64,000 nt of DNA, taken from Myxococcales bacterium. Its GTDB lineage: Bacteria > Myxococcota_A > Polyangia > Polyangiales > Polyangiaceae. Position 1 is the first letter of the stretch, and each line of letters opens with the position of its first letter. This document shows, in pieces, positions 10,970 through 56,111 of the stretch. Made by a program: the position numbers and the translations under genes. The notes under the pieces were generated by a model. That model had not been told where the DNA came from and did no database searches. It worked only from the letters and a program-made list of their open reading frames with translations. The stretch is from assembly GCA_016703425.1 (NCBI GenBank), contig JADJCA010000011.1, positions 378,050-442,049 on the forward strand, given 5' to 3'.

Positions 10970-11698
10970 TTGCAAGCCTTGGAAATCGCCCCGAAGATCT
11001 CCCGAATGCTGCCCCGTGTCCTCGAACCCGAGATCATGGACACGGCCCTCGACGCCGCCGACTACGACGCCATGGATCACGGCGCCGTGAACGAGGCCTT
11101 CTGCCGTGATTTTCTCGCGGCACGCCCTCAGTTGGCGTGCGTATTGGACGCGGGCACCGGCACCGGGCTCATCGCCGTGGAGCTTTGCCGCCGCGCGCCC
11201 GCGGCGAACATCGTGGCCATCGACCTTGCCAACGAGATGCTCGCGCTGGCGAAGAAGAACGTTCAGGCCGCGGGCTACGCCGACCGCATCGAAGTGGCGC
11301 GACGCGACGCGAAGCGAACAGGCTTCGACGACGGCGACTTCAGCGCCGTGATCTCCAACAGCCTCGTGCACCACCTGCCGGAGCCCGGAGCTTTTCTCAA
11401 GGAGGCCGCGCGGCTCCTCGCGCCGGGTGGGCTCCTCTTCGTGCGCGACCTCGCGCGCCCCGAAGACGAGACCGCCGTGTCGTCGCTCGTCGACCGATAC
11501 GCGCTTGTCACCGCCACGGACCCGACGCTCCGCTCACGGGAGTCGCGGCAACGAGCGCTCTTCGCGGCGTCGCTTCGAGCGGCGCTCACGTGCGACGAGG
11601 TGTCGGCCCTGCTGCCCGACGCGCTTCGGGTCGGGGCTCGCGTCGAGCTGACGAGCGATCGTCACTACACGCTCGTCGCGCGGAAGGCGCGTGCGTGA
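10970..11698 (+). CDS. Class I SAM-dependent methyltransferase
   Basis: VLDAGTGTGLIAVEL (motif I), DFSAVISNSLVHHL, LLAPGGLLFV. An alternative start at 11006 (MLPRVL) is possible. Confidence 0.75.
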   Translation: MQALEIAPKISRMLPRVLEPEIMDTALDAADYDAMDHGAVNEAFCRDFLAARPQLACVLDAGTGTGLIAVELCRRAPAANIVAIDLANEMLALAKKNVQAAGYADRIEVARRDAKRTGFDDGDFSAVISNSLVHHLPEPGAFLKEAARLLAPGGLLFVRDLARPEDETAVSSLVDRYALVTATDPTLRSRESRQRALFAASLRAALTCDEVSALLPDALRVGARVELTSDRHYTLVARKARA

Positions 11699-18617: not shown

Positions 18618-21473
18618 ATGTGGACAACCCTTCCTCTCTTTGGGACCGGCCTGCTCCTCACGGTCATGTTGGTGGCCAGCTACACGTTCGCCGTGTCGCT
18701 CGCCGCGCACGCCGACGGCAAGCCTCGGACGCTTCAGGCGGCTCGTTTCGGCGCCTACGGAGTCGTGATCCTCATCCTGACGACGGTGCTGGTCTTGGCC
18801 TACGCCTTCGTGAGCCACGACTTCCGACTGCGCTACGTCGCGCACTACTCGGACCGGTCGATGTCCACGCCGTACCTCTTCACGGCGCTCTGGGGCGGCC
18901 AAGACGGCTCGCTCTTGTGGTGGCTCTTCCTCTTGTCGCTCTACATCGGAGCGTGCGTGAAGTGGCTCGGCCGCCGCTTCCTTGAATTGCAGCCCGCGAT
19001 CTTGGCGACGTGCATGGCCGTCGTCCTGTTCTTCGCGGTGTTGATGACCTTCAGCGCGAATCCCTTCAGCACGAGCATCGCCGGCGCGAGGCCCGACGGC
19101 GAAGGCCTGAACCCGCTGCTCCAGAATTTCTACATGATCATCCACCCGCCGAGCCTCTACGTGGGCTTCGTCGGGTGCACGATCCCCTTCGCGTTCGCCG
19201 TCGCCGCGCTCGTCACCGGCCGCCTCGACACCGAGTGGATCGTCGCCAGCCGCAAGTTCACGCTCTTCTCGTGGCTCTTTCTCGCCATCGGCAACACGCT
19301 CGGCATGCTCTGGGCCTACGAGGAGCTCGGCTGGGGCGGCTATTGGGGCTGGGACCCGGTCGAGAACGCGGCCTTCATGCCGCTCTTGTCGGCGAGCGCG
19401 TTCGTGCACTCGGTCATGATCCAAGAGCGCCGGGGTCTCTTCAAACTCTGGAACGTGTTCCTCGTGTCGCTCACGTTCCTGATGACCATCTTCGGAACGT
19501 TCCTCACGCGCTCCGGCGTCATCGCCAGCGTGCACTCGTTCGCGCAATCGTCCATCGGCAACTACTTCGTCGGCTTCATGGTCGTCCTCGTGGCGTTCCT
19601 CATGACGCTCGTGCTCTACCGGTGGCCCGAGCTCCGCGACTACCCCAAGGAGGCGCGCCTTCGCAAAGCCGCCATGGCCACCGGCTGGACGGTTGTCGGC
19701 GTGGGCATCGCGGCTGGCTTGGTCCTCACCAACGTTCCCATGAGCGGCGCGGTGCGCGCCGCCATCGTGTCGGCCGTCGCCGCGGGGACCGTCTTTGCCT
19801 CCGTCGAGCTGGTGTTCCGCAAGATGACGGCGGGCCTCGACCTCTCGCATCGCCGCCCCGCCATCGAGTCGCTCTGGTCGCGCGAGTTCACCTTCGTCCT
19901 CAACAACTGGGGCCTGCTCGGCTTCATGTTGTTCGTGCTCGTGGCCACGACCTTCCCGATGATCTCGGAGGCCTTCTGGAACGAGAAGGTCACCGTCGGG
20001 CCGCCCTACTACAACGCGTGGGTTCAGCCCATCGGGCTCACGATCTTCTCGCTCATGGGCATCGGCTCACTCTTCGGATGGAAGAAGACGAGCGACGCGG
20101 CCCTCCGCAAGGCGTTCTTCTTCCCGAGCCTGACCTTCGTCGTCGTCCTCGTCCTCCACTTCGCCCTTGGCAGCCGCTTCGGTTACCCGGCCACGGTCTT
20201 CACGGACCCCATCTATCCCGGGCCCCTCGGGCAGGTGCTCCGCGCGTTCAACGGCATCACGCCGGTGCTCGGCATCTCGCTGTGCGCCTTCAACGCTGCC
20301 GTCATCGTGCAAGAGTTCGCGCTCCTCTTCGGCGCGCGCCGAAAGACCGGCGCCAACAAGGACGTGCCGAAGGCCCTCTTCTACGCCGGCTTCCTCCCGG
20401 GCTTCTTGATGACGCTCGTCACGTTGCCGCCTCCCTCGCGCCGTCGCTACGGCGGCTACGTGGTCCACTTCGGAATCACGATGATGTTCCTTGGCTTCAC
20501 GGGAGCGTCTTGGAACATCAACAAGGAGACGACGATGTCGCCGGGCCAGACCTACAAGGTCGACGCCTACGACCTTCAGTACGTCGGTCCGCGCATGGAG
20601 GTCGACACCTCGAAGCGCATGATCTTCGCCGACCTCCGCGTCCAGAAGAGCGGCAAGGACATGGGCCTCGTGACGCCGGCGAAGTTCATCTACAAGCGCC
20701 GCCCCGAGTCGCCGACCACGGAGGTCGCGATGCTCCACACCATCGCCGACGACCTCTACGTCGTGGTGGGCGCGATCAATCCGCAGACGAAGGTCGCGAG
20801 CCTGCAGATCCACGTCAACCCGCTCGTCGGGTGGATCTGGTTCGGCGCCATCATCCTCATCTTCGGCAGCGTCGTCTGCATGTGGCCCGAGCTCCGACCC
20901 AACGAGTCGCGGGCCTGGGCCGCGGCGCGCGGCGTGGCGGGCGCGGCAGCGAGCATCACGCTCGGGGTCGTCTTGGCCTCGATGCCCGCCCCAGCCTTCG
21001 CGCAGAGCGCTGGCAACGGCACCGCCGGCGCCTCGAGCCTCCACTCGGGCACCGTGAAGATCGAGAACGCCGAGGAGCGCGACCTCTTCGGAAAGCTGCG
21101 CTGCATGTGCGGCACTTGCCCGCGCGACCTCTTGTCGACCTGCGCGTGCGACACCGCCGAGGAGACCCGCGAGCGGCTGCGCGCGAGGCTCAAGGCCGGC
21201 GAGGCCAAAGACGCCATCATCTTGGCCTACGCGAAGGAGTACGGCTCCGCCGCGCTCTCCATTCCGCCGAACACGGGCGCCATGCGTGCCATCTACATGG
21301 TGCCCGTCGCCGCGATCGTGGCTGGCGCCGCCGGCGTCGTGGTGCTCATGCGTCGCTGGCGCAAAGGCGAGGGCGCCGCCGCCGCTCCGAAGGACAGCGC
21401 GGGCGCGACAAAGGACGCCAAAGACGAGTACGATCGCCGCCTCGACGACGAGCTGAGGGAGCTCGATGACTGA
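18618..21473 (+). CDS. ccmF: Cytochrome c maturation protein CcmF fused to a CcmH-like C-terminal domain
   Basis: CcmF hallmarks (WGGYWGWDPVEN, heme-handling His residues, about 15 TM helices), followed by LRCMCGTCPRDLLSTCACD (CcmH LRCxxC thiol motif) and a final TM helix. Confidence 0.85.
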   Translation: MWTTLPLFGTGLLLTVMLVASYTFAVSLAAHADGKPRTLQAARFGAYGVVILILTTVLVLAYAFVSHDFRLRYVAHYSDRSMSTPYLFTALWGGQDGSLLWWLFLLSLYIGACVKWLGRRFLELQPAILATCMAVVLFFAVLMTFSANPFSTSIAGARPDGEGLNPLLQNFYMIIHPPSLYVGFVGCTIPFAFAVAALVTGRLDTEWIVASRKFTLFSWLFLAIGNTLGMLWAYEELGWGGYWGWDPVENAAFMPLLSASAFVHSVMIQERRGLFKLWNVFLVSLTFLMTIFGTFLTRSGVIASVHSFAQSSIGNYFVGFMVVLVAFLMTLVLYRWPELRDYPKEARLRKAAMATGWTVVGVGIAAGLVLTNVPMSGAVRAAIVSAVAAGTVFASVELVFRKMTAGLDLSHRRPAIESLWSREFTFVLNNWGLLGFMLFVLVATTFPMISEAFWNEKVTVGPPYYNAWVQPIGLTIFSLMGIGSLFGWKKTSDAALRKAFFFPSLTFVVVLVLHFALGSRFGYPATVFTDPIYPGPLGQVLRAFNGITPVLGISLCAFNAAVIVQEFALLFGARRKTGANKDVPKALFYAGFLPGFLMTLVTLPPPSRRRYGGYVVHFGITMMFLGFTGASWNINKETTMSPGQTYKVDAYDLQYVGPRMEVDTSKRMIFADLRVQKSGKDMGLVTPAKFIYKRRPESPTTEVAMLHTIADDLYVVVGAINPQTKVASLQIHVNPLVGWIWFGAIILIFGSVVCMWPELRPNESRAWAAARGVAGAAASITLGVVLASMPAPAFAQSAGNGTAGASSLHSGTVKIENAEERDLFGKLRCMCGTCPRDLLSTCACDTAEETRERLRARLKAGEAKDAIILAYAKEYGSAALSIPPNTGAMRAIYMVPVAAIVAGAAGVVVLMRRWRKGEGAAAAPKDSAGATKDAKDEYDRRLDDELRELDD

Positions 21474-22239
21474 AAGCAAGGCCAGCTTGGGCGAACACGT
21501 GACGCCTCCCGAACCGAAAGCGGCGACGAACGACGAGGCCGACCGCGCGAGCCTCGAAGCCGACGCGGAGAGGCGCCTCGGTCGGCTCGCCTCTCGAGTC
21601 CTGCCGCCGGTCGTCGTGATCAGCGCCTTGGCCGTCGCCCTGACGGTGAGCATTGCGCCGGCGTTGCTCGTGCTCATCGGCGGCGCGCTCATCGGCACCA
21701 TCGCGCTCTTTTGGGCGAGCCTCCGTACGCTCGGCGGCGACGCTCCGTTGGCGGAGGACTTCGAAGCGTTGACGGTGCGCGTCGACAACCGGTCGGCGCT
21801 CGACGCCCGAAAGCGCTCGGCGCTCCGCGCGCTCAAGGACATCCAGCACGAGCACGCCATCGGCAAGATCGACGACGCCGACTTCGAGGTGCTCTCCGCG
21901 AAGTACCGCACCGAGGCGAAAGATCTCCTGCGCGAGCTCGACCTCGAGATCGAACCCTTCCGGGACCAGGCCGAAGCGCTGGCTCGAAAGCACCTCGAGA
22001 AGGCGGGCCTTGGTGCGACGGCGAACGCCGCCAAGGACGAAACCGCGGGCAACGCCAGCAAACCCGAGAAGGTCGCCGGCGACGCGAAGAAGGAGATGGC
22101 GACAGACGACGGCGCCGCCGACGCGCCCGCGTGCGCGACATGCGGGACGCGAAACGACTCCGACGCGGACTTCTGCAAGAAGTGCGGGAAGCGTCTCAAG
22201 GAAGAGAAGGCCGCTTCGGCCGAGAGTGACGATGCCTGA
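21466..22239 (+). CDS. Membrane protein with C-terminal zinc-ribbon (CATCGTRNDSDADFCKKCGKRL), possible cytochrome c maturation accessory protein
   Basis: The start overlaps the ccmF stop by 8 nt. Two TM helices, a coiled middle, and a CxxC...CxxC tail. Confidence 0.55.
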   Translation: MTESKASLGEHVTPPEPKAATNDEADRASLEADAERRLGRLASRVLPPVVVISALAVALTVSIAPALLVLIGGALIGTIALFWASLRTLGGDAPLAEDFEALTVRVDNRSALDARKRSALRALKDIQHEHAIGKIDDADFEVLSAKYRTEAKDLLRELDLEIEPFRDQAEALARKHLEKAGLGATANAAKDETAGNASKPEKVAGDAKKEMATDDGAADAPACATCGTRNDSDADFCKKCGKRLKEEKAASAESDDA

Positions 22240-23644
22240 TCGGAAGCTATTTTCCCGAGGTCTTCGCCTGGGCTTGGGCCTCGCCACCTTGTCCGTCACC
22301 GTGGGCGTCAGCGGCCTCGCCGTTGGCGCTGGCGACGCGAGCGCTCCGAAGAGCGTCGCCTCGAGTCGCCCCGCAAACAGCGACGCGGGTGCGGCCCCCA
22401 AGACGACAACGGCTTCGCCGGGCGAGAGCGGGCCGCCACGCGACGGCGTCGATCCCCACGGTGCCGGCGCTATGGACGTCGCCGACCCGCACGGCGGCGC
22501 CGATCCCCACGGCAGCGGCAACGCGGCTGGCGGACCCAAAACGCCCGCCGACACGGTGTCCGAAGATCCGGCGCTTCCCAAAGGAACCATCGACGTCGAG
22601 ATCCGAGACGAAAACGATCGCCCGCGCGGCCAAGTGCCCGTCCTGCTCGGCATCGTTCAGAACTCCGTAGCCAAAGGAGAGAACCGTCAGCGCCTCTCGG
22701 CCTCCACGTCGGCCGACGGCCACGTGCGCTGGAACAACCTCGAAGGCGGAAGCCAAATGGCCTACCGCGTGTCGGTCACCGAGGGCGCGGCGCAGTTCGC
22801 GGCGAGGCCGTTTCAGCTCGACCCGACCAAGGGCACGCGCGTCATCTTGCACACGTTCCCGTCGACGAGCGACCTCGCGACGGCGCTCGTCGTCATGCAG
22901 TCGATCGTCTACGTCGAGCTCAAAGACGATCGCGTCCAGGTCCAGCAGGCCTTCAACATCTTCAACTTTGGCAAGATGGCCTGGGTGCCGAAGGACTTCG
23001 TCTTGCCGTTGCCGGCGGGCTTTACGGCGCTCACCAGCTCGCAACAAATGAGCGACCAAACCGTCGAGGCAGCGGAGGGTCGCGGCGCGAAGGTCAGCGG
23101 CACCTTCGGCCCGGGCCAGCACTCCATCGAGTATCGCTGGCAGCTTCCGTTCGGGGGCGAGCCGAACCTCGACCTCGGCATCGGCATGCCGGGCAACGTC
23201 GCAGCCGCGCGCGTGATGGTCGTCGCGACTTCGCAAATGAAGGTCTCCGTCGATGGCTTCCCCGCCATGCGCGCCGGCCGCGACGGCCAAGGCAACAACA
23301 TCCTCGAGACGGAGCGTGAGATGCGCCGCGACGAGGCGCCCCTGCGCAGCCTACGAATCGTCTTGGCGGACATTCCCGGTCCGGGGCCGCTCCGCCTCTA
23401 CGCGGCCGGCATTTCGACCGTGGGCGTCCTGCTCGGGCTCTCCTACGCGAGCCGGTCCCGCAAAGATCACCGCGGACGCGAGACCGACCGAAAGAAGGAG
23501 CGCGAGCGACTCCTCGCCGAGCTCGAGGAGCTTGAGCGCGCCCATCGCGTCGGTGAGCTGGGCCCGCGGACCTACGAAAAGAGCCGCCGCGAGCTCATCG
23601 ACGCGCTCGCGCGGACGCTCGCCGCCGACGCCGCAACGACGTGA
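22232..23644 (+). CDS. Hypothetical bitopic membrane protein with DPHG repeats
   Basis: ATG 22232 overlaps the upstream stop. N-terminal signal/anchor, DPHGAGAMDVADPHGGADPHGSG repeats, large periplasmic domain, C-terminal TM, and a charged coiled cytoplasmic tail. Confidence 0.55.
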   Translation: MPDRKLFSRGLRLGLGLATLSVTVGVSGLAVGAGDASAPKSVASSRPANSDAGAAPKTTTASPGESGPPRDGVDPHGAGAMDVADPHGGADPHGSGNAAGGPKTPADTVSEDPALPKGTIDVEIRDENDRPRGQVPVLLGIVQNSVAKGENRQRLSASTSADGHVRWNNLEGGSQMAYRVSVTEGAAQFAARPFQLDPTKGTRVILHTFPSTSDLATALVVMQSIVYVELKDDRVQVQQAFNIFNFGKMAWVPKDFVLPLPAGFTALTSSQQMSDQTVEAAEGRGAKVSGTFGPGQHSIEYRWQLPFGGEPNLDLGIGMPGNVAAARVMVVATSQMKVSVDGFPAMRAGRDGQGNNILETEREMRRDEAPLRSLRIVLADIPGPGPLRLYAAGISTVGVLLGLSYASRSRKDHRGRETDRKKERERLLAELEELERAHRVGELGPRTYEKSRRELIDALARTLAADAATT

Positions 23645-23699
23645 ACGAAGGCCCTCTGACGGGCGCTTACGGGTGAGAAGAGCGCGCCCGCGAGAGGCG

Positions 23700-24095
23700 C
23701 CTTTCTTCGCACAAACGGCCTGTGGGTAAGCCTTGGAGTTGAGGGGGGAGCATCCCGTGGATTCCGGTGGGGGAAAGTCTCTTGACTACATCTGCCCCCA
23801 TCCGCCCCCAGTCATCCCACCTTCGACTCCACATGACATACACGGTCGATGTTTCTGATGTTCAATGGGATTTCGTGGCTGTCCACATTTCCACAGGCTC
23901 TATCAACACTTCTAGGATTTAAATCTCTAAGAAGATCTGGAGAGAAGAGCACCGCGCCCTCTCGCCCGTGAGGCAGCTCCAGTGGAGCCAAAACATGGGG
24001 TGCCGAGGCTTGCGTCCCGCCCAAATCGCGACGATGTAGGTGAGCCCGTCGCGAGCTTCCAAGAGCCGCCGTCCTGTCTCCGTCTTGCCTGAGGG
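23700..24095. other. Putative chromosomal replication origin (oriC)-like region upstream of dnaN
   Basis: Local GC drops markedly (ttctaggatttaaatctctaagaagatctgg). It contains DnaA-box-like 9-mers TGTCCACAT, TTTCCACAG, CATCCCACC and GGAATCCAC (rc), and sits immediately 5' of dnaN-recF-gyrB. Confidence 0.45.
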
Positions 24096-24099
24096 TCCC

Positions 24100-25239
24100 A
24101 TGCTGGAATTGTCGGTTGCGAAGAAAGATCTGCTGAAGCTCGTGAGCCGCGTGCAAGGCGTTGCCGAGCGCAAAAGCACGATGCCGGTTCTTTCCAACGT
24201 GCTCCTCACGGCCGACAGCTCGGGCACACTTCGCCTCTCCGCCACGGATCTCTACCTGGCGATCTCCGGCAAAATCGCGGCCGAAGTTCAGAAAGCCGGC
24301 AGCGTCGCCGTCCCCGCGAAAGATCTCTTCGAGCGCGTGAAGATGATGCCCGACGGTCCCGTGACCATCGCGTCGGGCGACAACGCTGCGACGACGCTCA
24401 AGGCCTCCGGCAGCGCGCGCCGGTACACGTTGCGCGGCATGCCGGGCGATGACTTTCCGCCGTTGCCGGCCGCCGCCGAGGGCGCGCCGTCGCTCGCGCT
24501 CGACGTGGCCGTGCTCCAAGAGCTGATCTCGAAGACGCACTTCTCAATCTCCACCGACGAAACGCGCGCGCACCTCAACTCGGCGCTCTTCGAGTGGGAC
24601 GGTGATGTCGTTCGCATGGTCACGACCGACGGACACCGCCTCTCGAAGATGGAGGTGAAGGTTCCCGGTCGACAGGCTTCGGCAACGATGCTCATCCCGC
24701 TCAAGGCCATCCACGAGCTGCGTCGCCTCGCCGACGACATGATGGGCGAGGCCGGCAAGGATCAAGACAAGCCGCAGATGCAGATCACGCAGAGCGGCTC
24801 GAGCGCGTTTTTCCAAGCGGGCACCACGAGCTTCAGCGTGAAGCTCGTCGACGCGCAGTTTCCGCCTTACGCCCAAGTCATTCCGCAAAACTCGGAGAAG
24901 CAGATCCGCGTGCCTCGCTCGGCCTTCGCCGACGCGCTCAAGGCCGTTGCCGTCGCCGCCAGCGAGCGCACGGGCGGCGTGAAGCTCTCGCTCGCGAAAC
25001 ACGCGATGCGAATCACCAGCGAGTCGCCCGAGACGGGCGATGGCTTCGATGAGATCGCGGTCGAATACGGCGCCGCGCCCATGACCGTTGGCTTCAACGC
25101 CAAGTACTTCCTCGACGTGCTCGCCGCGCTCGATGAGGACGAGGTCGTCTTGTGCCTCTCCGGCGAGCTTGACCCCGCCGTGGTGAAGCCCAACAGCGCG
25201 CGCGAGTTTCTGGCCGTCGTGATGCCGATGCGCATCTGA
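24100..25239 (+). CDS. dnaN: DNA polymerase III beta sliding clamp
   Basis: MLELSVAKKDLLKLVSRVQGVAERKSTMPVLSNVLL... has three-domain clamp architecture. GAGGG lies 5 nt upstream of the ATG at 24100. Confidence 0.9.
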   Translation: MLELSVAKKDLLKLVSRVQGVAERKSTMPVLSNVLLTADSSGTLRLSATDLYLAISGKIAAEVQKAGSVAVPAKDLFERVKMMPDGPVTIASGDNAATTLKASGSARRYTLRGMPGDDFPPLPAAAEGAPSLALDVAVLQELISKTHFSISTDETRAHLNSALFEWDGDVVRMVTTDGHRLSKMEVKVPGRQASATMLIPLKAIHELRRLADDMMGEAGKDQDKPQMQITQSGSSAFFQAGTTSFSVKLVDAQFPPYAQVIPQNSEKQIRVPRSAFADALKAVAVAASERTGGVKLSLAKHAMRITSESPETGDGFDEIAVEYGAAPMTVGFNAKYFLDVLAALDEDEVVLCLSGELDPAVVKPNSAREFLAVVMPMRI

Positions 25240-25241
25240 CG

Positions 25242-26438
25242 ATGGAGGCGGCTATCGAGATCGGTGACCGGCCGCTCGAGACGCGCGCCAACGATGGCGA
25301 GCAAAAGAGCCCGCTGATCATCGAGACGATTTCGCTGCGCGGCTTCCGAAACCTGAGCGACGTCGATCTCGCGCCGTCGCCGCGCTTCAACGTCATCGCC
25401 GGCGATAACGGTCAAGGCAAGACGAACATCCTCGAGGCCATCTACCTCGGCGGCACGACGCGGAGCTTTCGCACGACGAAGCTGGCGGAGGTCGTCGGGC
25501 ACCACAAGACGCTCGCGACGTCGAAGCTCGTCGTTCGTGAAGGGCCTTCCGAGCACGACATCGCCCGAGAGCAGGTGGTCGGCCTCCAAGGTGGCGCCCG
25601 CTCGGTCAAAGTGGATGGCAAGAGACCCGCGTCGCTGGCGGCTTATGCCATCAAGACGCCGGTCGTCGTGTTTCACCCCGGCGAGGTGGCGCTCTCGCAG
25701 GGGCCCAGCGGAGAGCGACGTCGCCTCCTCGATAGAGCCGGACTCTACGCGGCGCCGGGCTCGTTGGCCGATGCCGATGCCTACGCTCGCGCGATCCGTG
25801 AGCGTCAACGCGCGCTCGAGACGCGCGGCGCCATGGCTCGCGATTTGGACCAGTGGGAGGCGCTCGCGGTGCGTCACGGCATGAGCATCATGGGCGTTCG
25901 TCGTCGCGCCAGCGAGGCGCTGCTCACCGCGGCGGAGCGCGCCTTCCGACGCATCGCCGCGCCCGACCTCACGCTCACGGGAGCCTTCGCGCCGAGCGCA
26001 CCGGAAGACGAGACCGCGTACCTGAAGGCGCTCTGGGAGAGCCGCGCCGTCGACATGCGGAGAAAGAGCGCGAGCATCGGACCGCATCGCGACGAGCTCG
26101 CGCTCTTCATCAACGGGCACGCCGTTCGTGGGACCGCATCGCAAGGGCAGCACCGCGCGCTCGTGCTCGCGCTGAAGGCCGCCGAGATCGAGGTCATCGG
26201 GGATGCGCGTGGCGCGAGACCGATTCTCCTGCTCGACGACGTCTCGAGTGAGCTCGACCGGGAGCGGACGCGCGCGCTCATGGCGTTCTTGCGCGACCTC
26301 GAGGGGCAGGTCTTTTTGACGACGACGCGGCCGGAGCTCATCGTCCTCGGAGACGCCGAAGGTCTCTCCTTTGGCGACGAAACGCGGCGCGATTGGACCG
26401 TCCGCGAGGGCGCCATCGCGACGGCAGTAAATACCTGA
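25242..26438 (+). CDS. recF: DNA replication and repair protein RecF
   Basis: Walker A GDNGQGKTNILEAI and the signature/Walker B region LLLDDVSSELD. It immediately follows dnaN. Confidence 0.85.
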   Translation: MEAAIEIGDRPLETRANDGEQKSPLIIETISLRGFRNLSDVDLAPSPRFNVIAGDNGQGKTNILEAIYLGGTTRSFRTTKLAEVVGHHKTLATSKLVVREGPSEHDIAREQVVGLQGGARSVKVDGKRPASLAAYAIKTPVVVFHPGEVALSQGPSGERRRLLDRAGLYAAPGSLADADAYARAIRERQRALETRGAMARDLDQWEALAVRHGMSIMGVRRRASEALLTAAERAFRRIAAPDLTLTGAFAPSAPEDETAYLKALWESRAVDMRRKSASIGPHRDELALFINGHAVRGTASQGQHRALVLALKAAEIEVIGDARGARPILLLDDVSSELDRERTRALMAFLRDLEGQVFLTTTRPELIVLGDAEGLSFGDETRRDWTVREGAIATAVNT

Positions 26439-26451
26439 AATCAAAGCCTAA

Positions 26452-29088
<2,637 letters not shown>

Positions 29089-30364: not shown

Positions 30365-32977
<2,613 letters not shown>

Positions 32978-37304: not shown

Positions 37305-37997
37305 ATGCCTGCCCCGCCGGCCTCCAACGTGATCACGCTCTCGGGTGTCTCGAAGACCTACGGCTTCGTGCGCGCGCTGACGAACGTGTCGCTTCAGCTG
37401 GCCCCCGGCATCACCGTGGTTCGCGGGGCGAACGGTTCGGGCAAGAGCACCATACTGTCGATTCTTGGGACGCTGACGCGGCCGACGGCGGGCGACGTGG
37501 ACTTCGGCGCGCTCGGCCCAACGCGCGAGGATGTGAGGGCGCAGCTCGGGTGGGTGGGACATGAGCTCCTAGTGTATGCGGATCTGAGCGCGCGAGAGAA
37601 TCTGACCTTGTGTGCCGCGCTCCACGGACTCGACGCGGAAGTGGTCGCGAAGGTCGCTGCGCGTTTCGGCATGGAGTCATTTCTGGATCGGCCCGTGCGG
37701 ACGATGTCGCGTGGTCAGCGGCAGCGCGTCGCCGTGGCTCGCGCGGTCCTCAACGAGCCGCGGCTGCTCCTCTTGGACGAGCCGACGACCGGGCTTGATT
37801 CGGACGGCGTCGCGCTTCTTGAGCGAGTCGTCGGCGAAGAGGCGTCGCGCGGAGGTTGGGTGGTGGTCGTTACCCACGAGGTGGAGTTTCTTAGGCACGC
37901 TTCATCGGTCTGGATGGCGCGAGGGCGCCTGAGCAGCGCGCCAGGTGTTTCACGTGAAACATCTCCCGCGGCGACGGGTGGCGCGGAAGGCGCCTAA
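37305..37997 (+). CDS. ABC transporter ATP-binding protein (solitary; CcmA-like size)
   Basis: GANGSGKST Walker A, signature MSRGQRQRVAVARA, Walker B LLLLDEP. 230 aa. No permease gene adjacent. Confidence 0.75.
   Translation: MPAPPASNVITLSGVSKTYGFVRALTNVSLQLAPGITVVRGANGSGKSTILSILGTLTRPTAGDVDFGALGPTREDVRAQLGWVGHELLVYADLSARENLTLCAALHGLDAEVVAKVAARFGMESFLDRPVRTMSRGQRQRVAVARAVLNEPRLLLLDEPTTGLDSDGVALLERVVGEEASRGGWVVVVTHEVEFLRHASSVWMARGRLSSAPGVSRETSPAATGGAEGA
37945..37960. repeat. 16-mer GTGTTTCACGTGAAAC (contains perfect palindrome GTTTCACGTGAAAC), copy 1, inside the 3' end of the ABC ATPase gene
   Basis: Identical 16-mer recurs at 38963..38978. Confidence 0.6.
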
Positions 37998-37999
37998 CG

Positions 38000-38960
38000 A
38001 GGCGCTACGGGTGCCCGCCCGTGGTCCCGTCGCGAAGGCTGCGAAGAGACCAACGCCGCGGGTTGGACGCACAGTTTCAATGGTTAGGGCGCGACCGCCT
38101 GGGCGCCGAGCGGGTGTGTTGGCGAACCTGCTGCGCATGCGGCGCAGGTTGCACTCGCACAGGCGCTCGCCGTCGAGGGGGTGAGCGGCGGCCATGCTGG
38201 CGGGTGGGGTCACGGCGCGCCGCCGAGGGGGCGGTGGCAGGTCGAGGGGGGCGGTGGCGCCGTGCGCGCGGGGCCGGCCGGGCCGGCGCGGCGGGGGACG
38301 ATGGTTAGCATGCACCGTGTTCACTCTGCCGCCCCCGGCCCGCTCCGCCCCGGCCCGCCCCGGCCCGCCCCGCCCCCCTCCCGCTGCCCGGCCTCGCTGC
38401 CCCCCACCGCCCGGGTCCTCCCGCTTTGGCTCGCGATCGCGCGGGCGTTCGACTGGGGTGGCCCGGTTCGGTCGGCACCCCCGGTGCGGCACCGCGGAGC
38501 CCGTGCGCCGCTGTGGGCCCGACCCGGCTGACCGTCATCCCGTGATCCGCGCCCGCGCCGCTCGCGCCCGCGTTCCCAACAAGTCCCCCACCTGCAGGTG
38601 CACGGCTTCAACGGGAGGCAGCTCGGCCGCGCACTTCATTGCGCCGCGGCGCGAGAGGCCTCGCGTTCGAGCCGCGCTTCGCAGCCCACGGGCGCCCGGC
38701 GAGTGCTGGCCAAGGCGCGCCACCGGAACCGGAGCGCCGTCGCCCGGTCCGCCCCTGCCGGGCCACCGTCGCGGTCTCGCGCCGCGCCCGTGGAGGCGTC
38801 GGCGTTGGCCACCGCGGGACCCTCTTGAGAAACGCGCTGGGCACCTCGTGGCGCACGGCGGAGACCGGGAGACGTTCCCGCTTTGCCGATCGTGGGCCCC
38901 GTCGCGAACGCCGGACGCCCGCGTTGAGCGGCCATCGTTGGGCTCAGCGCCCAGCCACGC
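38000..38960. other. Noncoding ~80% GC island between convergent genes (no credible ORF; G-run-rich then C-run-rich)
   Basis: All six frames give only Arg/Pro/Gly-rich overlapping ORFs. It contains runs such as gggggg and cccccc, plus short direct repeats (ccccggcccgc x3, atggttag x2). Confidence 0.4.
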
Positions 38961-38962
38961 CT

Positions 38963-38978
38963 GTGTTTCACGTGAAAC
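38963..38978. repeat. 16-mer GTGTTTCACGTGAAAC, copy 2, overlapping the stop codon and last codons (KRFT*) of the bioF-like gene
   Basis: Exact match to 37945..37960. Confidence 0.6.
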
Positions 38979-40065
38979 GTTTGAGCACGGCGGCGGCCGC
39001 GGCGACGTCCTCGGCGGAGTGTCGGGCGCTCGCCGTAACGCGGAGTCGCGCAGTGCCCGTCGGCACCGTCGGCGGCCGAATCGCCTGCACGTGGACGCCC
39101 TCGGCGCGCGCCGCCTCCGCCGCCGCGATGGCGACCGCCGGGTCGCCAAGCACGAGCGGGATGATCGGCCCGAATCCTGGAGGTGCCCCCAGTGCGGCCC
39201 TCAGGGTCGTGGCGTTCTCGAGGCACCGCTCGCGGAGCGACGAGTCCTCTCGCGCCCGACGGACACACCGGGCCGCTGAATGCGCAAGCGCAGGCGAGAG
39301 GCCCGTCGAGAACACGAAGCTACGAGCCCGGTTCCACAGCCAGTCGACGAGCGCCTGGGCCCCAACGACGAACGCGCCTTGTCGGCCGAGCGCTTTGCCG
39401 AGGGTCCCGATGAGCACGTCGGCCTCCACGCCGGCTTGCGCCGTGCGCCCGCGACCCTCGGGCCCGAGCACCCCGAGCGCATGGGCCTCGTCGACGATGA
39501 GCCCCGCGCTATACCGATCGCAGAGCGCCCGGAGCGCAGCGAGGTCGGGGCCGTCACCATCCATGCTGAAGTAGCTCTCGGTCACCACCCAGGCGCGGGA
39601 CTCCCGGCGAGCCACAAGGACCTCCTCCATGGCGGCCACGTCGAGGTGGTCGATGACCGCCACGCGCGCACCGCTCAACCGACACCCGTCGATGATCGAT
39701 GCGTGGTTCAGTCGGTCGCTGACGATGAGGTCGCCGGCCTGGGCGAGGGCGCTCAGCGCTCCGACGTTCGCGGCGTAGCCGCTCGAGAATGTCAAAGCCG
39801 CATCGGCGCGCAGCCAATCCACCAACTCGCGTTCGAGCGCTCGGTGGCCGTCAGCCTCGCCCACCACGAGGCGCGAAGCTCCTGCGCCGCCCGGACCCTC
39901 GAAGCCGCCCGGGTCTTCGCCAAGGCCGAGGTAGTCGTTGCTGCAGAACGACGGCCGCGGCCCCCGGTAGACGGGAGGTCGCTCGCGCAAGAGGCCGGCC
40001 CCCGCGAGGCTCCGAAGCTCCTCGCGGAGGTGCCGAAGGGCAGGTGGCGGCGGCCGAGCGCTCAC
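38968..40065 (-). CDS. bioF: 8-amino-7-oxononanoate synthase-like alpha-oxoamine synthase (PLP-dependent)
   Basis: 365 aa. SNDYLGL, DEAHALGVLG, GTLGKALG (PLP lysine). Belongs to the BioF/Kbl/SPT family. Confidence 0.8.
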   Translation of the reverse strand: MSARPPPPALRHLREELRSLAGAGLLRERPPVYRGPRPSFCSNDYLGLGEDPGGFEGPGGAGASRLVVGEADGHRALERELVDWLRADAALTFSSGYAANVGALSALAQAGDLIVSDRLNHASIIDGCRLSGARVAVIDHLDVAAMEEVLVARRESRAWVVTESYFSMDGDGPDLAALRALCDRYSAGLIVDEAHALGVLGPEGRGRTAQAGVEADVLIGTLGKALGRQGAFVVGAQALVDWLWNRARSFVFSTGLSPALAHSAARCVRRAREDSSLRERCLENATTLRAALGAPPGFGPIIPLVLGDPAVAIAAAEAARAEGVHVQAIRPPTVPTGTARLRVTASARHSAEDVAAAAAVLKRFT

Positions 40066-41841: not shown

Positions 41842-43419
41842 TCAGTCCGAGAGGAGCGCCGCTTTGAGGGCGCTCAGGGCCACCGGCTCCACCGAGGCGG
41901 CCCCCACGGCGGAGACGACCGGCCACCTTACCTGTGCGCCCCTGCGCTTCTTGTCGGCGTCAATCCAAGGCAAAGCGGCTGCCAGATCCGCATGGCTGGC
42001 GGCGGTCGGGAGGTCCAACCGGCCCAAAAGGGCCGCGACGCGCCCCGCAAGCGCCGGGTCGGTCTTGCCCAACTTCGCGGCGGCGCGAAGCTCAGCCACA
42101 AGCCCGATGGCGACCGCCTCGCCGTGGAGCCACCGCGTGAAGGCGCCGTGAGCCTCGAGCGCGTGGCCGACCGTGTGGCCTAGGTTCAAAAGCGCGCGTT
42201 CGCCCCGCTCGGTCTCGTCGTTTCGCACGATGCGCGCCTTCGCGGAGATGGCCGCGTGCAAGACCGGGAGGAGCGCGTCCTCGTCGCCCGCCGCGAGCGC
42301 TTCTGCGGTCTCTTCCATGCGAAGAAAGAGGGAAGCGTCGGACGAGAGGCCAATCTTCGCCGCCTCGGCCAGCCCCGCCTTCCGTTCGCGAGCCGGCAGG
42401 GTTCTGAGGAGAGCCAAGTCGGCGACGACGCCGCTCGGCTGATGAAACGCGCCGACGAGGTTCTTTCCTGCCGGGTGATCAAAGCCTGTTTTTCCGCCCA
42501 CCGACGCGTCGATGAGGGCCAGCGTCGTGCTTGGCACGGAGAGCCATCGCACGCCGCGGAGGAGCGTCGCCGCCGCAAATCCAGCCAGATCCAGCACCAC
42601 GCCGCCGCCGAAACCCACGACGACGGCGTCGCGGTCGATGCCTGCACCGAGCGCCGCGTCCCAGATGGTGGACACGGAAGACACCGTCTTGTGCGCCTCG
42701 CCGGGCGCCAGCGTGACGTCGATCCGCGGCACCGTGAGCGGGCGAAACATCTCCGTCGCGTAGGCCAACTGCGCTCGTCGCACCCGCGCGTCGGCCACGA
42801 CGACGAGCGACGACGGCCCCATGGTCGCGAGCCGGTCGGCGATGCGTGTAGAGTCCCCGCGAACGATCTCAACGGTGTACGAACGCTCGCCGAGCGGGAT
42901 CGCCACCAGCGAGCGGCTGATCCACGGCACGATGCTGTCGGCGAGCTCGCTCGGCGTCGCGTCGTCGGTGGCGAGGGCGAGGTGACACTCGGCGTAGGCG
43001 GAGCGTCGCGCCTCGAGGAGGCGCGGAAGCTCATCCCCGTAGGCACCCGCGCCGCCCAAGAGCGGGCGGTCCTCACCGCCTTTGAGGCGCTCGCGAAGCG
43101 TCTCGGTGCGCGCGCTCAACGAGATCACGAGCGCCGCGTCCACCACGCGGTGCCGCAGCTCGCGGTCGACCAGCGCCCCGCCGCCCACGGCCACGACCTT
43201 CGGCTTCCCGTCGCGGAGCAGCGTATCGACGACCTCGCGCTCCATGGCGCGGAACGCCGGCTCGCCTCGCTCGCGCAAGAGCTCGCCCGGAGCCTTCCCC
43301 GACTGCTCGCGGAGCCGCTCGTCGGTGTCGAAGAAAGGGACGTCGAGCGTGGCCGCTAGGGCGGCGCCAACCGTGCTCTTGCCGACGCCCGGCGGCCCGC
43401 TGATGACGATCGTTTGCAT
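41842..43419 (-). CDS. aroKB: Bifunctional shikimate kinase / 3-dehydroquinate synthase (AroK-AroB fusion)
   Basis: N-terminus [22 protein letters not shown] (shikimate kinase P-loop). C-terminus shows DHQ synthase motifs GGGVVLDLAGFAAAT, GHTVGHALE. Confidence 0.85.
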   Translation of the reverse strand: MQTIVISGPPGVGKSTVGAALAATLDVPFFDTDERLREQSGKAPGELLRERGEPAFRAMEREVVDTLLRDGKPKVVAVGGGALVDRELRHRVVDAALVISLSARTETLRERLKGGEDRPLLGGAGAYGDELPRLLEARRSAYAECHLALATDDATPSELADSIVPWISRSLVAIPLGERSYTVEIVRGDSTRIADRLATMGPSSLVVVADARVRRAQLAYATEMFRPLTVPRIDVTLAPGEAHKTVSSVSTIWDAALGAGIDRDAVVVGFGGGVVLDLAGFAAATLLRGVRWLSVPSTTLALIDASVGGKTGFDHPAGKNLVGAFHQPSGVVADLALLRTLPARERKAGLAEAAKIGLSSDASLFLRMEETAEALAAGDEDALLPVLHAAISAKARIVRNDETERGERALLNLGHTVGHALEAHGAFTRWLHGEAVAIGLVAELRAAAKLGKTDPALAGRVAALLGRLDLPTAASHADLAAALPWIDADKKRRGAQVRWPVVSAVGAASVEPVALSALKAALLSD

Positions 43420-44582
43420 CAATACTCCGTCAGTTGGGCGAGGTAGCCCGTGAAATTTCGCCGCAGCTCGCCCATGGAATCGCCGCCAAACTTCTCGAGC
43501 ACCGCCTCGGCGAGGACGAGGCACACCATGGCCTCGCCGACCACCGACGCAGCCGCGACGGCGCAAATGTCGCTTCGTTCGAAGGCTGCGTCGAAGGGCT
43601 CCTTGGTCACGACGTCGACGCTCGCCAAGGCGCGCCGCAACGTGGCGATGGGCTTCATCGACGCGCGCGCCACGAGCACCTCGCCGTTGGTCACGCCCCC
43701 CTCGAGGCCCCCCGCGTGGTTGCTGCCGCGGACGAAGCGCCTCTTGGTCTCGTCGTAAGCGATGGGATCATGGACCTCGGAGCCGCGCTTCGTCGCCACC
43801 GACGCGCCGTCGCCGATGGCCACGGCCTTGATGGCCTGGATGCTCATGAGCGCCTGCGCGAGGCGCCCGTCGAGCTTTCGATCCCAGTGCACGTGACTCC
43901 CAAGGCCCGCCGGAACGCCCCGCGCCACGACCACAAAGGAGCCGCCGAGCGTGTCGCCGGCGTGGGATGCCTCCAGGATGGCGGCGCGCATGCGCGCTTC
44001 CGCCTCGGTGTCGGGGCACGCGAGCTCCGACGCGAGCGCCCGCGCGGAGATGTCCGCGAGCGAGCCCTCCGCCTTGGCCGTCACGTCACCGATGGCCTCG
44101 ACCCAAGCCGAGACCTCGATGCCAAGGGCTTGAAGGAGCGTCCGTGCGACGGCTCCCGCCGCCGTCCGCGCCGCCGTTTCGCGAGCGCTGGCCCGCTCGA
44201 GGACGTCGCGCAGATCGTGACGGTCGTATTTGAGCCCACCGGCCAGGTCGGCGTGTCCCGGCCGCGGACGCGTCAGCGGCTCGGGCGCGGCAGCGAAGGG
44301 CTCGGCGCCCATCTTGTCGCGCCAATTCTCGAAGTCGCGGTTCTCGACGCTGAGCGCGACGGGAGAGCCGAGCGTGGCGCCGCCCCGCACGCCCGAGAGG
44401 ATCGCGACGGCGTCGCGTTCGATCTTCTGCCGGCCCCCGCGACCGTAGCCGACCTGGCGCCGCGCCAAGTCACGGTTGATGTCGTCGGCCGACAGCGCGA
44501 GGCCCGCAGGGAGCCCCTCCACGATCGTCACGAGACGTGGGCCGTGCGACTCTCCCGCGGTGAGCCATCGGAAACGCGACAT
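43419..44582 (-). CDS. aroC: Chorismate synthase
   Basis: [28 protein letters not shown]... 387 aa. Its stop overlaps the aroKB start (TGATG). Confidence 0.9.
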
Positions 44583-50842: not shown

Positions 50843-52644
50843 TTGTACCTTGCGGCCGTGGCAAAGCTCCGCTCGTCCGCTCGTCTTCTTGCCGTTGTCG
50901 CCCTGGCCGCGAACGTCCTCGCGAGCGCGCCAGTTTTGGCTCAAGCCGGGGATGCGAAGGCGGCCCTGGCGTCGGCCGACAAGGCCGTCAAAGCGAAAGA
51001 CTGGGCGAAGGCCCAGGCCGACTTTCGCGCGGCCCACGCCGCCTCGCCGAGCGCCCAGGCGGTGCACGGACTAGGCGGCGCGAGCTACGAGCTCAAGGCC
51101 TGGGCCGAGGCCTACGAGGCCTACGACGAGTTCTTGAAGTCCTACAAAGACGCGATGGGCGGCGGCGCCAAGGCGCTCGCCGAAAAGCGCTTGAAGGAGC
51201 TCGAGGCGAAGACCGGCGCCGTCACGGTGCTCGTCAACGAGGCCGGCGCCGAGGTCTTCCTCGGTGATCGCAAGCTCGGCGCGAGCCCCGTGCGGGCCCT
51301 CGTCCGTGTCGCGACGGGGCCGCACAAGGTTCGCGTGACCAAGGCCGGGTTCGCGGCCTTCGAGAAGAACATCGACGTCGCGGCGAGCGCCCGCGTCAGC
51401 GTCGACGTCGCCCTCACCAAAGAAGCGAAGACCGGTCGACTCGTCGTCAAAGAGAGTGGCGGCCAGGCGGTGCGTGTCATCGTCGATGGGGTCGACATGG
51501 GCCCCGCTCCCTGGGAAGGTGAGCTGCCCCGGGACCGCACGACGTCTCCGTTCGCAGCGCAACGCTCGGCTCGACGACGCAAAAGATCGAGGTGAACGCC
51601 GGCAAGACCGCCGAGGCGCAGATCACCGCGACGTCGGCCACGGGCCGCATCGAGATTCGCACCGGCGACGGCCTCGGCAACGTCTACGTCGACGGCAAGC
51701 TCGTCGGCGAGGGGTCCTACTCGGCGGAGGTCCCATCGGGGTCCCACCTCGTGAAGGTCACGCGCGAGGGCTTCATGCCCTTCGAAAAGACCATCGACGT
51801 GGCGGACAAGCAGGCCGTTTCCGAGACCGTCACGCTGCGCCGCGAGGGGCAATCGCTCCAGGCCGTGAAGGTCGAGGAAGAGCGGCCGTTTTTTGGGCTC
51901 TATGGCGGCTTTGGTCTTGCCGGCGCGGCGGGCTTCGGCGGGATGGGCAGCAGCCTCGAAGGCGAGTCGTGCAAGACACGCGGCGCGGTGAGCTGCGATA
52001 CGCCTGGGCCCCTTGGTGGCGGAGCGTTTGGCTACGTCGGCTTTACCTGGCTCCCCGTCGGCTTCGAGCTGTTCCTCGCCGGTCTGTTCGACCACTCGGA
52101 ACAAAAGGCCGAATTTGTGCAGCCCGACCCCACGAAGGTCGCGCTCCTCGGCCCAAGCCGAACGGAAACGTTCAAGGTGAATCGCGTGGGCGGCGTAGCG
52201 GCCCTTCGCGTTCGCGCCACCTACGACGCGAAGGTCGTTCGACTGAGCCTCGCAGCCGGTCCGGGCATTGCCTACAAGGTCCTCATCCTTGAACGAGAGG
52301 CCACGACCCCCACGGGCTTCAGCGACCGTTATGTGCCCGACGACGGCAAGACCAACGCCGGCGAAACGGAGGCCAACAAGCTCTCGTACGTCGGTCCGGC
52401 CCTCAGCGGTGACGTGTCGATGCACGTCCGCATCTCGGATTCGGTTGCCATCTCGCTCGGCGCCTTGGCCTGGCTCGAATCGGCCGGCACCGAGGTCGTC
52501 GCCCAGGGCGACAAGAACCGCTACATGGTGAACTCGGCGCAGCAAGGCTCGACGCCCATCGCCCTTCGGACCCCGAGCTACCAGCCCACGGTCGGAACGC
52601 AGTTCTTCCTCGGCCCGTACCTCGGCATGCAGTTCGGGCCCTGA
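50843..52644 (+). CDS. Secreted multi-PEGA-domain protein (interrupted by a single-base frameshift near 51527-51531)
   Basis: ORFs 50843..51595 and 51592..52644 are PEGA repeats of one protein. Adding one C to the cccc run reads GELPPGPHDVSVRSATLGSTTQKIEVNAGKTAEAQI, a canonical PEGA segment spanning the junction. Confidence 0.65.
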
Positions 52645-52730
52645 GTCGGCGGCCGCTGATTGAAGCCCAAACGAAACGAGGGCGGCCTCCACTGGAGGGC
52701 CGCCCTCGATCGCTTATGCCTCGGCGCGCG

Positions 52731-54797
52731 TCAGTTCTTCTTTTGGGTCGCCGTCACGAAGAGGACCGGCGGCAGCGGGGCCGCGGCGGGCAGCGCGATC
52801 GTTGGGTCAACCTTCGCGATGAACTCGGACGCGAGCTTGCCGGTGCCGATGTTGCGCGAGTTGTTTCGCAGGGTCTCGCAGGGCGCGCCGCAGATCCGGA
52901 TCAGCGACTGTTGGGCGCCGGCGAAGTTCCACCCGTCGACCGGTGCGCCGTCCTTGCAGGCCTCGTTGAAGACGACGTCCGGTTGACCCAAGATCGACAA
53001 CGTCGTCTTGCTGCCGTCGGTGATCGAGCCGGGGCGATCGTAGAGGCAGCTCGAGAGGTCGCTGACGATGCGCCCTAGCGCTTCGGCGGCCGGGCCACCC
53101 TTGCCGCGCGAGTCGTCGAAGCAGTTCTCCTTGCGTCCAGCCGCCGTGGTCACCGCCTCGCACTGCGCGACGCGTTCAATGCGAAGCGGGCTCGCGTCGT
53201 CGGCTTGCTTGATCGGCGGGTTCGCCGGCGGCGCAGTGGGATCGTCGCCCTTCTGGCCGAGTTGGATCACGTAGGTGAGGATGCCCTTCTTGAACGCCTC
53301 GCCAGCGGCCGCGGCGATGGCGCCGGTCTTGGCGCTGCTGCACGACTCACCGACGGGGTTGTTCGTCAGGATCACGACCGCGCGAAGGTTCAGCTTGTCC
53401 TTGTCATCGAGCTTGTCGAGCATGTCGTAGACGCCGCCGCCGCTGAGCGCGTTCTCGACGGAGCCAACGGGGGCGCGCGCCGGCGATGAGCGGTCCTTGC
53501 CGACGAGGTCGGCGATGGCGTCGCGCGCTTGCAAGGCCGGCACGAACTTCACGTCGAGCGCGTTTCGGTCGGCGAAGCTCGCCGCGGGCAAACAGGCGCT
53601 CGCCCCGGCGGCCGCGTCGGTGAGCCACTTGAAGCCGACCTGCGTCGTCGAGAAGACTGCGTCGTCGAGCGAGAGGCTCAAGATGAGCTGGACCGGATCC
53701 TTGGTGGGGTCATTCGAGTACAGAATCCCCGCCATCGGCGCGGAGCGGTCTAGCAAGACCAGCAGCTTGCTCGGCGCCGGAATGAGCACGTCACCGTTCT
53801 CGTCGCACAGCGGCTGCTCCGGCGGCTTGGGCGGGCAGGAGCGGCTCGCGGCGAGGGCGAGGATCTTCTTCTTCTTCGGATCCTTCGTCTTGGTGAGCTC
53901 GCAGAGGCCCGGCGCGAGGCGGAACTTCCCGGGGCCGGTGATCGTGTAGCCCTCTTGGTGCTCGGCGAGGTCCTTCTCGACGGCGGCCTTCTCTTCCGGC
54001 GAGAGCTCCGCGAAACCGGGGACCGACGCCGCCGTGATGTCGACGTCCAAGACCTCGGTGACCATGCCCTCGAAGATGGCGCGGACGTTCATGCCCTCGA
54101 GCGAGCCGGGAACCGAATAGGTGCACGTGGCCGCGTCGTCGAGCACGGGCGCGACGGCGTCCGTGAGGCAACGCGCGAGCGAGAAGCACGTGCTCGAGTC
54201 ACCAAACGCCAGCTCGGCGGAGTAATCGTGGAAGATGTGCGAGTCGCGCTGCGGATCGACGCAGTTGCCACCGACGCAGACCTTGTCGTCGGGGCACTTC
54301 TGATCGAAACACGCGTACTTGAGCGGCATGGGCAAGTAGAGGATGCGCCCGTTGCGGTAGCTCTGCCGGCTGCGTCGCAAGATGCGCGCACCGAGCGGGT
54401 TCTTGCCCGAGGCGTCGCTCTCGCCGAGGCCCGTCTCCGACTCGCAGTCGGTGCCGCGCGCCAGGGCTACTTCCGCTTCCTCGGCTCGGTAGGCGACGAC
54501 GTTCACCATGACGGCGGGAGCGTCGGTGTTGGCCTTGTGCACGCCGAGGGTCTTCGGGAGGCGCGCCTTGCCGTTGATGACGGCCACGCGTGCACAATCG
54601 GTGACGACGCCCACGGGATCCGTCGCCGAATACGCACGGACGCTGTACTCGAGCGTCTTGAACTCTTTGGGGACCTGGACCTGCGTGCTGAAGCCCGCGA
54701 CGTATTCCGTGGCCGGCTCGCCCTTGGAGCAGCCCATCCCCCCACCCACGGTGGCGCAAACCAACGACGTCCCAACGAGAACCTTAAGAAGCTTCAT
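52731..54797 (-). CDS. Cys-rich lipoprotein with vWA-like domain
   Basis: MKLLKVLVGTSLVCATVGGGMGC has a lipobox. Cys-rich N-terminal third. LLVLLDRSAPM...VVILTNNP matches a von Willebrand A pattern. Confidence 0.6.
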   Translation of the reverse strand: MKLLKVLVGTSLVCATVGGGMGCSKGEPATEYVAGFSTQVQVPKEFKTLEYSVRAYSATDPVGVVTDCARVAVINGKARLPKTLGVHKANTDAPAVMVNVVAYRAEEAEVALARGTDCESETGLGESDASGKNPLGARILRRSRQSYRNGRILYLPMPLKYACFDQKCPDDKVCVGGNCVDPQRDSHIFHDYSAELAFGDSSTCFSLARCLTDAVAPVLDDAATCTYSVPGSLEGMNVRAIFEGMVTEVLDVDITAASVPGFAELSPEEKAAVEKDLAEHQEGYTITGPGKFRLAPGLCELTKTKDPKKKKILALAASRSCPPKPPEQPLCDENGDVLIPAPSKLLVLLDRSAPMAGILYSNDPTKDPVQLILSLSLDDAVFSTTQVGFKWLTDAAAGASACLPAASFADRNALDVKFVPALQARDAIADLVGKDRSSPARAPVGSVENALSGGGVYDMLDKLDDKDKLNLRAVVILTNNPVGESCSSAKTGAIAAAAGEAFKKGILTYVIQLGQKGDDPTAPPANPPIKQADDASPLRIERVAQCEAVTTAAGRKENCFDDSRGKGGPAAEALGRIVSDLSSCLYDRPGSITDGSKTTLSILGQPDVVFNEACKDGAPVDGWNFAGAQQSLIRICGAPCETLRNNSRNIGTGKLASEFIAKVDPTIALPAAAPLPPVLFVTATQKKN

Positions 54798-54847
54798 GAG
54801 CAACCTTCCTGACGAACCTGACGAATCTGGCGAAGACGGTGCGCCGT

Positions 54848-56066: not shown

Positions 56067-56111
56067 GGTACCGAAGGAACGCGCCCCCGCCCCGAGATTT
56101 CTCCGCGGCAC

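Follow-up and report, generated by a model that had tools for sequence, protein, structure and literature searches.

Chromosomal ParABS systems share a highly conserved palindrome, parS (TGTTNCACGTGAAACA), for which species variants have been tabulated (PMC7022226); the consensus parS sequence has been given as TGTTTCAC-GTGAAACA (PMC7383237). In Myxococcus xanthus, 22 parS sites are clustered and follow the consensus TGTTCCACGTGGAACG (PMC7022226 Table 1), and a literature search returned nothing specific on parS in Sorangium or the Polyangia. Here, we describe two palindromes of this type in 64,000 nucleotides of an uncultured member of the Polyangia known as a metagenome-assembled genome (MAG; Myxococcales bacterium, GCA_016703425.1, contig JADJCA010000011.1, positions 378,050 to 442,049, hereafter the window). 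The palindromes stand about 1 kb apart at the 3' ends of two convergent genes, which encode a CcmA-type ATP-binding cassette (ABC) ATPase and a BioF-like 8-amino-7-oxononanoate synthase; the non-coding DNA between the two stop codons is referred to below as the island. Judged from sequence, the two palindromes are very probably ordinary chromosomal parS sites, and the GC-rich ~1 kb that separates them an unconstrained spacer.

The 16-mer GTGTTTCACGTGAAAC is present as exact copies at 37945-37960 and 38963-38978 of the 64-kb window, and its copy number was matched by 0/100 dinucleotide-preserving shuffles. The natural register of the palindrome lies one base on, at the coordinates listed for the two sites in Table 1, where the sole mismatch of site 2 to the parS consensus falls at the outermost position. 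No further site with up to three mismatches to parS was found in the 64 kb; two are seen where 0.07 are expected. The ABC ATPase open reading frame (ORF) ending at 37997 has the tail ...SSAPGVSRETSPAATGGAEGA followed by its stop, and the left palindrome copy lies inside this tail. Within it, site 1 encodes (G)VSRET in a non-conserved C-terminal extension: the conserved part of CcmA ends at ...ARGRL, and the 21 residues that follow, running through site 1, are seen only in the species cluster. On the opposite strand, site 2 covers the final three codons and the TGA stop of the BioF-like gene (R-F-T-stop; ...AVLKRFT-stop). The original prediction had placed both copies of the 16-mer, and their overlap with the ATPase tail and with the last codons and stop of the bioF-like gene, exactly so. 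The overlap of the ORF ends with parS is incidental; CcmA runs through its site, and BioF simply stops inside the other.

We recovered nine species-level relative contigs, all from other samples, through the 90%-identity cluster of the window BioF protein (NCBI MBK6694972.1, 'MAG: 8-amino-7-oxononanoate synthase [Myxococcales bacterium]'). The genes flanking the island are 95-99.5% identical in nucleotide sequence to those of the close relatives, with identities of 0.87-0.99 at 4-fold-degenerate sites. Site 2 is unchanged in 9/9 of the species-level relatives, and in contigs L146 and L148 both 16-mers are unchanged despite 5-11% substitutions and indels in the DNA between them; the two putative parS sites are evidently under strong purifying selection. 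The spacing from one site to the other differs among the window, L146 and L148 (1018, 1034 and 985 bp), and comparison of these three gave island identities in aligned columns of 0.954, 0.894 and 0.915. Because this range of 0.89-0.95 is close to the 4-fold-site identity, the substitution rate of the island is about neutral. At least nine indel runs were counted in the island, with lengths of 50, 25-33, 32, 66-67, 7, 7, 2 and 1 bp; as many of these are not multiples of three, no reading frame is kept. A public gene call in L148 (7083-7853, minus strand) places a 256-aa ORF inside the island; its frame is broken by indels relative to the window and L146, which makes it most likely a spurious gene in non-coding sequence rich in GC.

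The window also differs from these relatives by a micro-inversion (Table 1). The inverted segment is 94% identical to L146, L147 and L154 on the opposite strand, its self-complementarity is only 31%, and a ~50-bp deletion adjoins it, with no flanking inverted repeats. Either a genuine rearrangement or a variant of the assembly may explain it. An inverton at 38790-38898 was considered and rejected, as flanking inverted repeats are missing, no recombinase was found in the window annotation, a deletion accompanies the inversion, and the nine relatives show a single orientation.

Across a wider set of genomes, BioF scans of a genome collection and of metagenomes yielded 145 loci, 107 of them from Polyangia (1.17 Mb) and 38 non-myxobacterial, mostly Planctomycete. 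The Myxococcota loci derive from Polyangiaceae, Labilithrix or Polyangiales MAGs whose BioF proteins share at most 64% amino acid identity with that of the window, a distance adequate for synteny and parS statistics and not for island homology. The common gene order is aroC-aroKB-x-zapA-bioF, then ccmA in convergent orientation, then moxR-duf58-tgpA-clpB-gyrB-recF-dnaN. The 107 Polyangia loci contain 108 parS-like sites with up to one mismatch, against ~0.002 expected by base composition, and 78 of the 107 carry at least one. Nearly all of the sites (97/108) fall between -400 and +1500 bp of bioF, a density of 0.36/kb as compared to 0.012/kb elsewhere (30-fold); the 38 non-myxobacterial bioF loci contain none. 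In the Polyangia, the sites recur in the bioF start-codon region, at codon ~52 (~30 loci), at ~+835, and at the 3' end of the gene or just downstream of it. Predicted parS sites thus appear to be anchored at the bioF locus across the Polyangia class, the window being one version of this arrangement.

Individual loci add detail to this picture. The codon ~52 site (~+155 nt; L013, L029, L040 and others) encodes V-S-R-E-T in a variable stretch after SNDYLGL; the window BioF is devoid of this site and has GLGEDPGGFEGPGG there instead. In L034, a Haliangiales MAG, two TGTTCCACGTGGAACA sites at 11004 and 11375 near bioF are of the M. xanthus type and not of the TTTCAC/GTGAAA type, a hint that, across the phylum, the specificity of ParB changes along with its site. 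The nearest other genome, L001, encodes MoxR, ClpB and BioF proteins that are 90%, 85% and 64% identical in amino acid sequence to those of the window. Its bioF-ccmA spacer measures 144 bp and has a pair of parS sites at a distance of 37 bp, of which the first overlaps the BioF stop (ERFT-stop). The two genomes therefore have orthologous sites at the stop codon, and the ~1 kb that separates the pair in the window is extra DNA.

The pair of sites lies close to a probable origin region. The dnaN-recF-gyrB genes (24.0-29.1 kb) are 9-14 kb away, and the gap upstream of dnaN (23645-24039) contains several DnaA-box-like motifs of the CCACA type and the only AT-rich patch of the window, where GC falls to its lowest 150-bp value, 47%, at 23801-23950. 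On account of the low-GC patch and the motifs, we regard this gap as a candidate oriC, ~14 kb from the parS pair. The ORF that precedes the gap and dnaN (22010-23644) had no Pfam match. Together, the sequence match, the proximity to the origin, the exact conservation and the class-wide clustering at bioF lead us to identify the repeats as parS.

The island itself was queried for composition, coding capacity and RNA features. Its description as ~80% GC in the original prediction is fair, with 77.0% overall and a peak of 83-85% around 38200-38500 that is the highest in the window (mean 68.5%); the genes of the window have a GC content at third codon positions (GC3) of 0.79-0.95, which the island approaches with a total GC of 0.77-0.85. 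The assertion that no credible ORF lies between the copies likewise held. The 970 bp show no codon-position periodicity, the spread of GC across codon positions being at most 0.15 as compared to 0.2-0.45 in the flanking genes, and a Pfam search of ten island ORFs returned nothing meaningful. Rfam gave no match, either for the whole window at gathering thresholds or for 37800-39100 at E ≤ 1, and no promoter or terminator consensus was detected in 37700-39200. Searches of the island by blastn and tblastx against the window and ~1.3 Mb of related loci produced low-complexity noise only, and plasmid and phage databases gave no match. Past the 16-mers, the window repeat analysis found no similarity between the two island ends.

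The part of the island with potential for a long hairpin is a G-rich arm (~38180-38300) followed by a C-rich arm (~38325-38420), with a flip of the GC skew at ~38300 and a conserved, less GC-rich core at ~38296-38330 (gacgatggttagcatgcaccgtgttcactctgccg). The C-rich arm includes a GGGCC/GGGGC-like repeat tract (38328-38388), the length of which varies among close relatives (25-33-bp difference), and a G-quadruplex motif on the C strand (38332-38389); the window has just three such motifs. The fold of the two arms has a minimum free energy (MFE) of -193.7 kcal/mol, corresponding to z = -0.22 against shuffles; hence the stability of the hairpin gives no evidence beyond composition. Deletions in the arms are non-compensatory, with 25-33 bp missing from the G-rich arm in L146 and 32 bp from the C-rich arm in L148. 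The best reading of the island is an unconstrained, lineage-specific and neutrally evolving spacer between convergent genes.

Following the established ParABS mechanism, ParB (Spo0J) dimers would bind at each 16-bp palindrome, form clamps in a CTP-dependent manner and move from there along the adjoining DNA. The resulting partition complex, a few kb in width and near the replication origin, would be segregated by ParA and would recruit SMC. The spacer, with neither promoter nor coding constraint, has probably drifted toward the GC content of silent codon positions while gathering indels, changes in repeat-tract length and a micro-inversion.

Other explanations for the locus differ in how they treat the repeats and the island. 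The original prediction had likened the arrangement to a miniature inverted-repeat transposable element (MITE) or an insertion flanked by terminal inverted repeats (TIRs), with the 16-mers as its termini and new C-terminal codons donated to both neighbours. The identical palindromic 16-mers at both island ends would suit such an element, as would the two ORFs that end in or behind the repeats, and an insertion of ~980 bp between sites 37 bp apart, as they stand in the island-free L001, is conceivable. A mobile insertion is nevertheless very unlikely: the repeats read as canonical parS and exist without the island in L001 and near bioF in 78/107 loci, searches of the window and of ~1.3 Mb of related DNA turned up no further copy of the island, plasmid and phage databases gave no match to it, no transposase is present, no target-site duplication was recognised, and no similarity extends past the 16-mers into the island ends. 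What stands of the proposal on the gene ends is that the ORFs do end in or run through the palindrome and that the 21-aa CcmA extension is lineage-specific; a MITE as its donor falls away. In essence, the distribution of parS shows the 16-mer to recur as a functional site, independently of the spacing seen here. Least likely of all is a role of the palindromes as operators for ccmA and/or bioF, bound by an unrelated dimeric transcription factor. Perfect palindromes of 14-16 bp are typical of dimeric regulators, and biotin operons are classically controlled through palindromic operators (BirA/bioO). The sites, however, are at the 3' ends of both genes and not at promoters, they match the parS consensus and no biotin operator, those of relatives are often inside coding sequence (bioF codon ~52, +835), and the pair is close to the origin. 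The dimeric transcription-factor site of the original prediction was thus apt in kind, in that a dimeric helix-turn-helix protein would be expected to bind, and misplaced in role, the sites being probable parS centromeres and not operators that delimit a locus.

Two further proposals concern the island more than its ends. Decay of a bioD (dethiobiotin synthase) gene would fit its position and size. The bioF-ccmA stop-to-stop distance varies from -89 to 3306 bp across relatives, and in ~20 loci the stretch exactly between the two genes, 570-950 bp long, carries an ORF that opens with a ...GTGTxVGKT P-loop and for which bioD (TIGR00347) is the sole NCBIfam match; a profile search found no bioD anywhere in the 64-kb window. 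However, when the window and four versions of the island were translated in six frames and searched with a BioD profile of 20 orthologs, the island versions scored E ≥ 0.45 (88-fragment database) as compared to 1e-63 to 1e-83 for independent orthologs. The L001 spacer is only 144 bp, and in-place decay would therefore require an independent deletion there; 83-85% GC and GGGCC-type repeats are also unlike decayed coding DNA. A bioD remnant is, on balance, unlikely. More broadly, bioD follows bioF in most relatives and is missing from the loci of the window, L001, L002, L018 and L040; in these lineages, the gene was either relocated or lost from the biotin pathway. A functional non-coding element, as the original prediction had also raised in the form of a structured non-coding locus, is quite improbable. 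It could be a structured RNA gene, or a bidirectional hairpin, R-loop or G-quadruplex terminator of convergent ccmA and bioF that possibly shields the ParB loading sites. In its favor are the location between convergent 3' ends, the order of the arms (each transcript would be G-rich first and then enter the complementary C-rich arm, with the large predicted hairpin energy given above), the scarce G-quadruplex motif, and the ~1 kb length kept in three sub-lineages. Set against these are the lack of an Rfam match at E ≤ 1 and of a terminator consensus, a fold no better than that of shuffles, uncompensated arm deletions (25-33 bp in L146, 32 bp in L148), a substitution identity that is about neutral, and the absence of the island from all more distant relatives. 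We give a similarly small chance to a variant in which the spacer contributes to centromere function. Here, it would be a promoter-free buffer, prone to hairpins, R-loops or G-quadruplexes and held at ~1 kb between two ParB loading sites, stopping convergent ccmA and bioF transcripts from sweeping off ParB clamps or shaping ParB spreading as a barrier. The bioF locus would then be a fixed Polyangia centromere at a distance from parAB, retaining parS sites even where they are part of a coding sequence (V-S-R-E-T).

Several points weigh against reading the palindromes as ordinary parS sites around an unconstrained spacer. Neither the 64-kb window nor the DNA up to 10 kb from bioF in the fetched loci yielded a gene for ParA or ParB, nor was a ParBc domain or a GERRxRA-bearing ORF found in the window or the fetched loci, where the motif search gave spurious antisense ORFs only; a cognate ParB is thus assumed from general knowledge of Myxococcota. 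The window has two sites as compared to the 22 clustered in M. xanthus (PMC7022226), and more may sit outside it. The gene dnaA is absent from the 64-kb window, and oriC is a candidate only. A separation of ~1 kb is kept in all three sub-lineages (985-1034 bp), and some length or structural role of the island, perhaps as a large hairpin, could account for it. As to how the island arose, insertion between adjacent parS sites and erosion of bioD in place both come into question, and we lean away from bioD.

The features of the locus and its neighborhood are collected in Table 1. The CcmA-type ATPase scores 132.9 bits against TIGR01189 (ccmA), just above the cutoff of 131.6. For the BioF-like protein the best NCBIfam model is TIGR00858 (bioF) with 367 bits, under the cutoff of 426. 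The listed stop-to-stop ORFs for AroK-AroB and chorismate synthase exceed the corresponding gene calls in L146 (525 and 370 aa), and the listed starts are therefore probably too far upstream. A CcmF-CcmH fusion (951 aa) is encoded at 18618-21473, ~17 kb from the solitary ccmA-type ATPase gene (37305-37997), which indicates that the cytochrome c maturation genes are dispersed. Elsewhere in the window, four PEGA-domain proteins are clustered at 50843-56111 beside a Ser/Thr protein kinase (56112-57680). The only tRNA of the window, a tRNA-Val with anticodon CAC (11640-11733, minus strand), is unusually long at 94 nt as called and overlaps the 3' end of a methyltransferase ORF on the opposite strand (10970-11698, plus strand).

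Table 1 Features of the parS-bioF locus and its surroundings, in window coordinates
Feature	Position	Strand	Annotation or remark
Candidate oriC and dnaN-recF-gyrB block	23645-29088	+	AT-rich gap upstream of dnaN
dnaN	24040-25239	+	Pfam annotation
recF	25242-26438	+	Pfam annotation
gyrB	26563-29088	+	Pfam annotation
clpB	30365-32977		Pfam annotation
MoxR AAA ATPase		-	neighbour of the ccmA/bioF locus
ccmA-type heme-exporter ABC ATPase, 230 aa	37305-37997	+	Pfam ABC_tran; NCBIfam TIGR01189
parS site 1 (predicted)	37946-37961	.	TGTTTCACGTGAAACA, 16/16 vs parS consensus
Non-coding spacer, 970 bp between convergent stops	37998-38967	.	77.0% GC, species-cluster-specific
G-rich arm / core / C-rich arm	38180-38420	.	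potential long hairpin
109-bp micro-inversion	38790-38898	.	inverted in window vs 9/9 close relatives
parS site 2 (predicted)	38964-38979	.	TGTTTCACGTGAAACG (CGTTTCACGTGAAACA on the minus strand), 15/16 vs consensus
BioF-like 8-amino-7-oxononanoate synthase, 365 aa	38968-40065	-	Pfam Aminotran_1_2 (class I/II aminotransferase)
ZapA		-	neighbour of the ccmA/bioF locus
AroK-AroB fusion (shikimate kinase / 3-dehydroquinate synthase)	41842-43566	-	followed by chorismate synthase

Annotated in this way, the locus would mark the centromere of a chromosome from an uncultured member of the Polyangia and, with the AT-rich patch upstream of dnaN, its likely origin region. Of greatest interest beyond the locus itself is that parS has kept its position at bioF throughout the Polyangia, coding sequence included; parS sites anchored at bioF can help to orient and scaffold MAGs and to predict ParB loading sites. 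The island, in turn, illustrates how DNA free of constraint, with a GC content like that of silent positions, many indels and a micro-inversion, can mimic a discrete element when the genome is rich in GC. No new kind of system is implied, chromosomal parS being already well known.

Among described elements, MITEs and TIR-bounded non-autonomous transposons resemble the locus in being short non-coding segments with identical palindromic ends that are missing from a related genome. They differ in that the repeats of the window are probable host centromere sites existing without the island, and in that the island has no other copies, target-site duplication or transposase-related sequence in the DNA compared. 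Noc-binding sites (NBS, TATTTCCCGGGAAATA) are also 16-bp palindromes for a dimer of the ParB family, Noc being a ParB paralog; NBS differ at specificity-determining positions (PMC7383237), and the sites of the window match parS and not NBS. The M. xanthus parS cluster shares with the window its phylum and the presence of several sites within one short origin-proximal region, whereas the window variant is of the TTTCAC/GTGAAA type, consists of two sites only, and is anchored at bioF and not, as far as visible, at parAB. The closest likeness in sequence is to the Spo0J/ParB-type parS of Bacillus subtilis (TGTTNCACGTGAAACA). The window differs from it in having no parAB operon nearby and in its host, an uncultured Polyangia MAG known from sequence alone. 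The first parS of B. subtilis is located inside spo0J, and the sites of the window are likewise tolerated within coding sequence; they are also alike in the 16-bp palindrome (16/16 and 15/16 positions), in being origin-proximal and few, and in their strong conservation relative to their surroundings.

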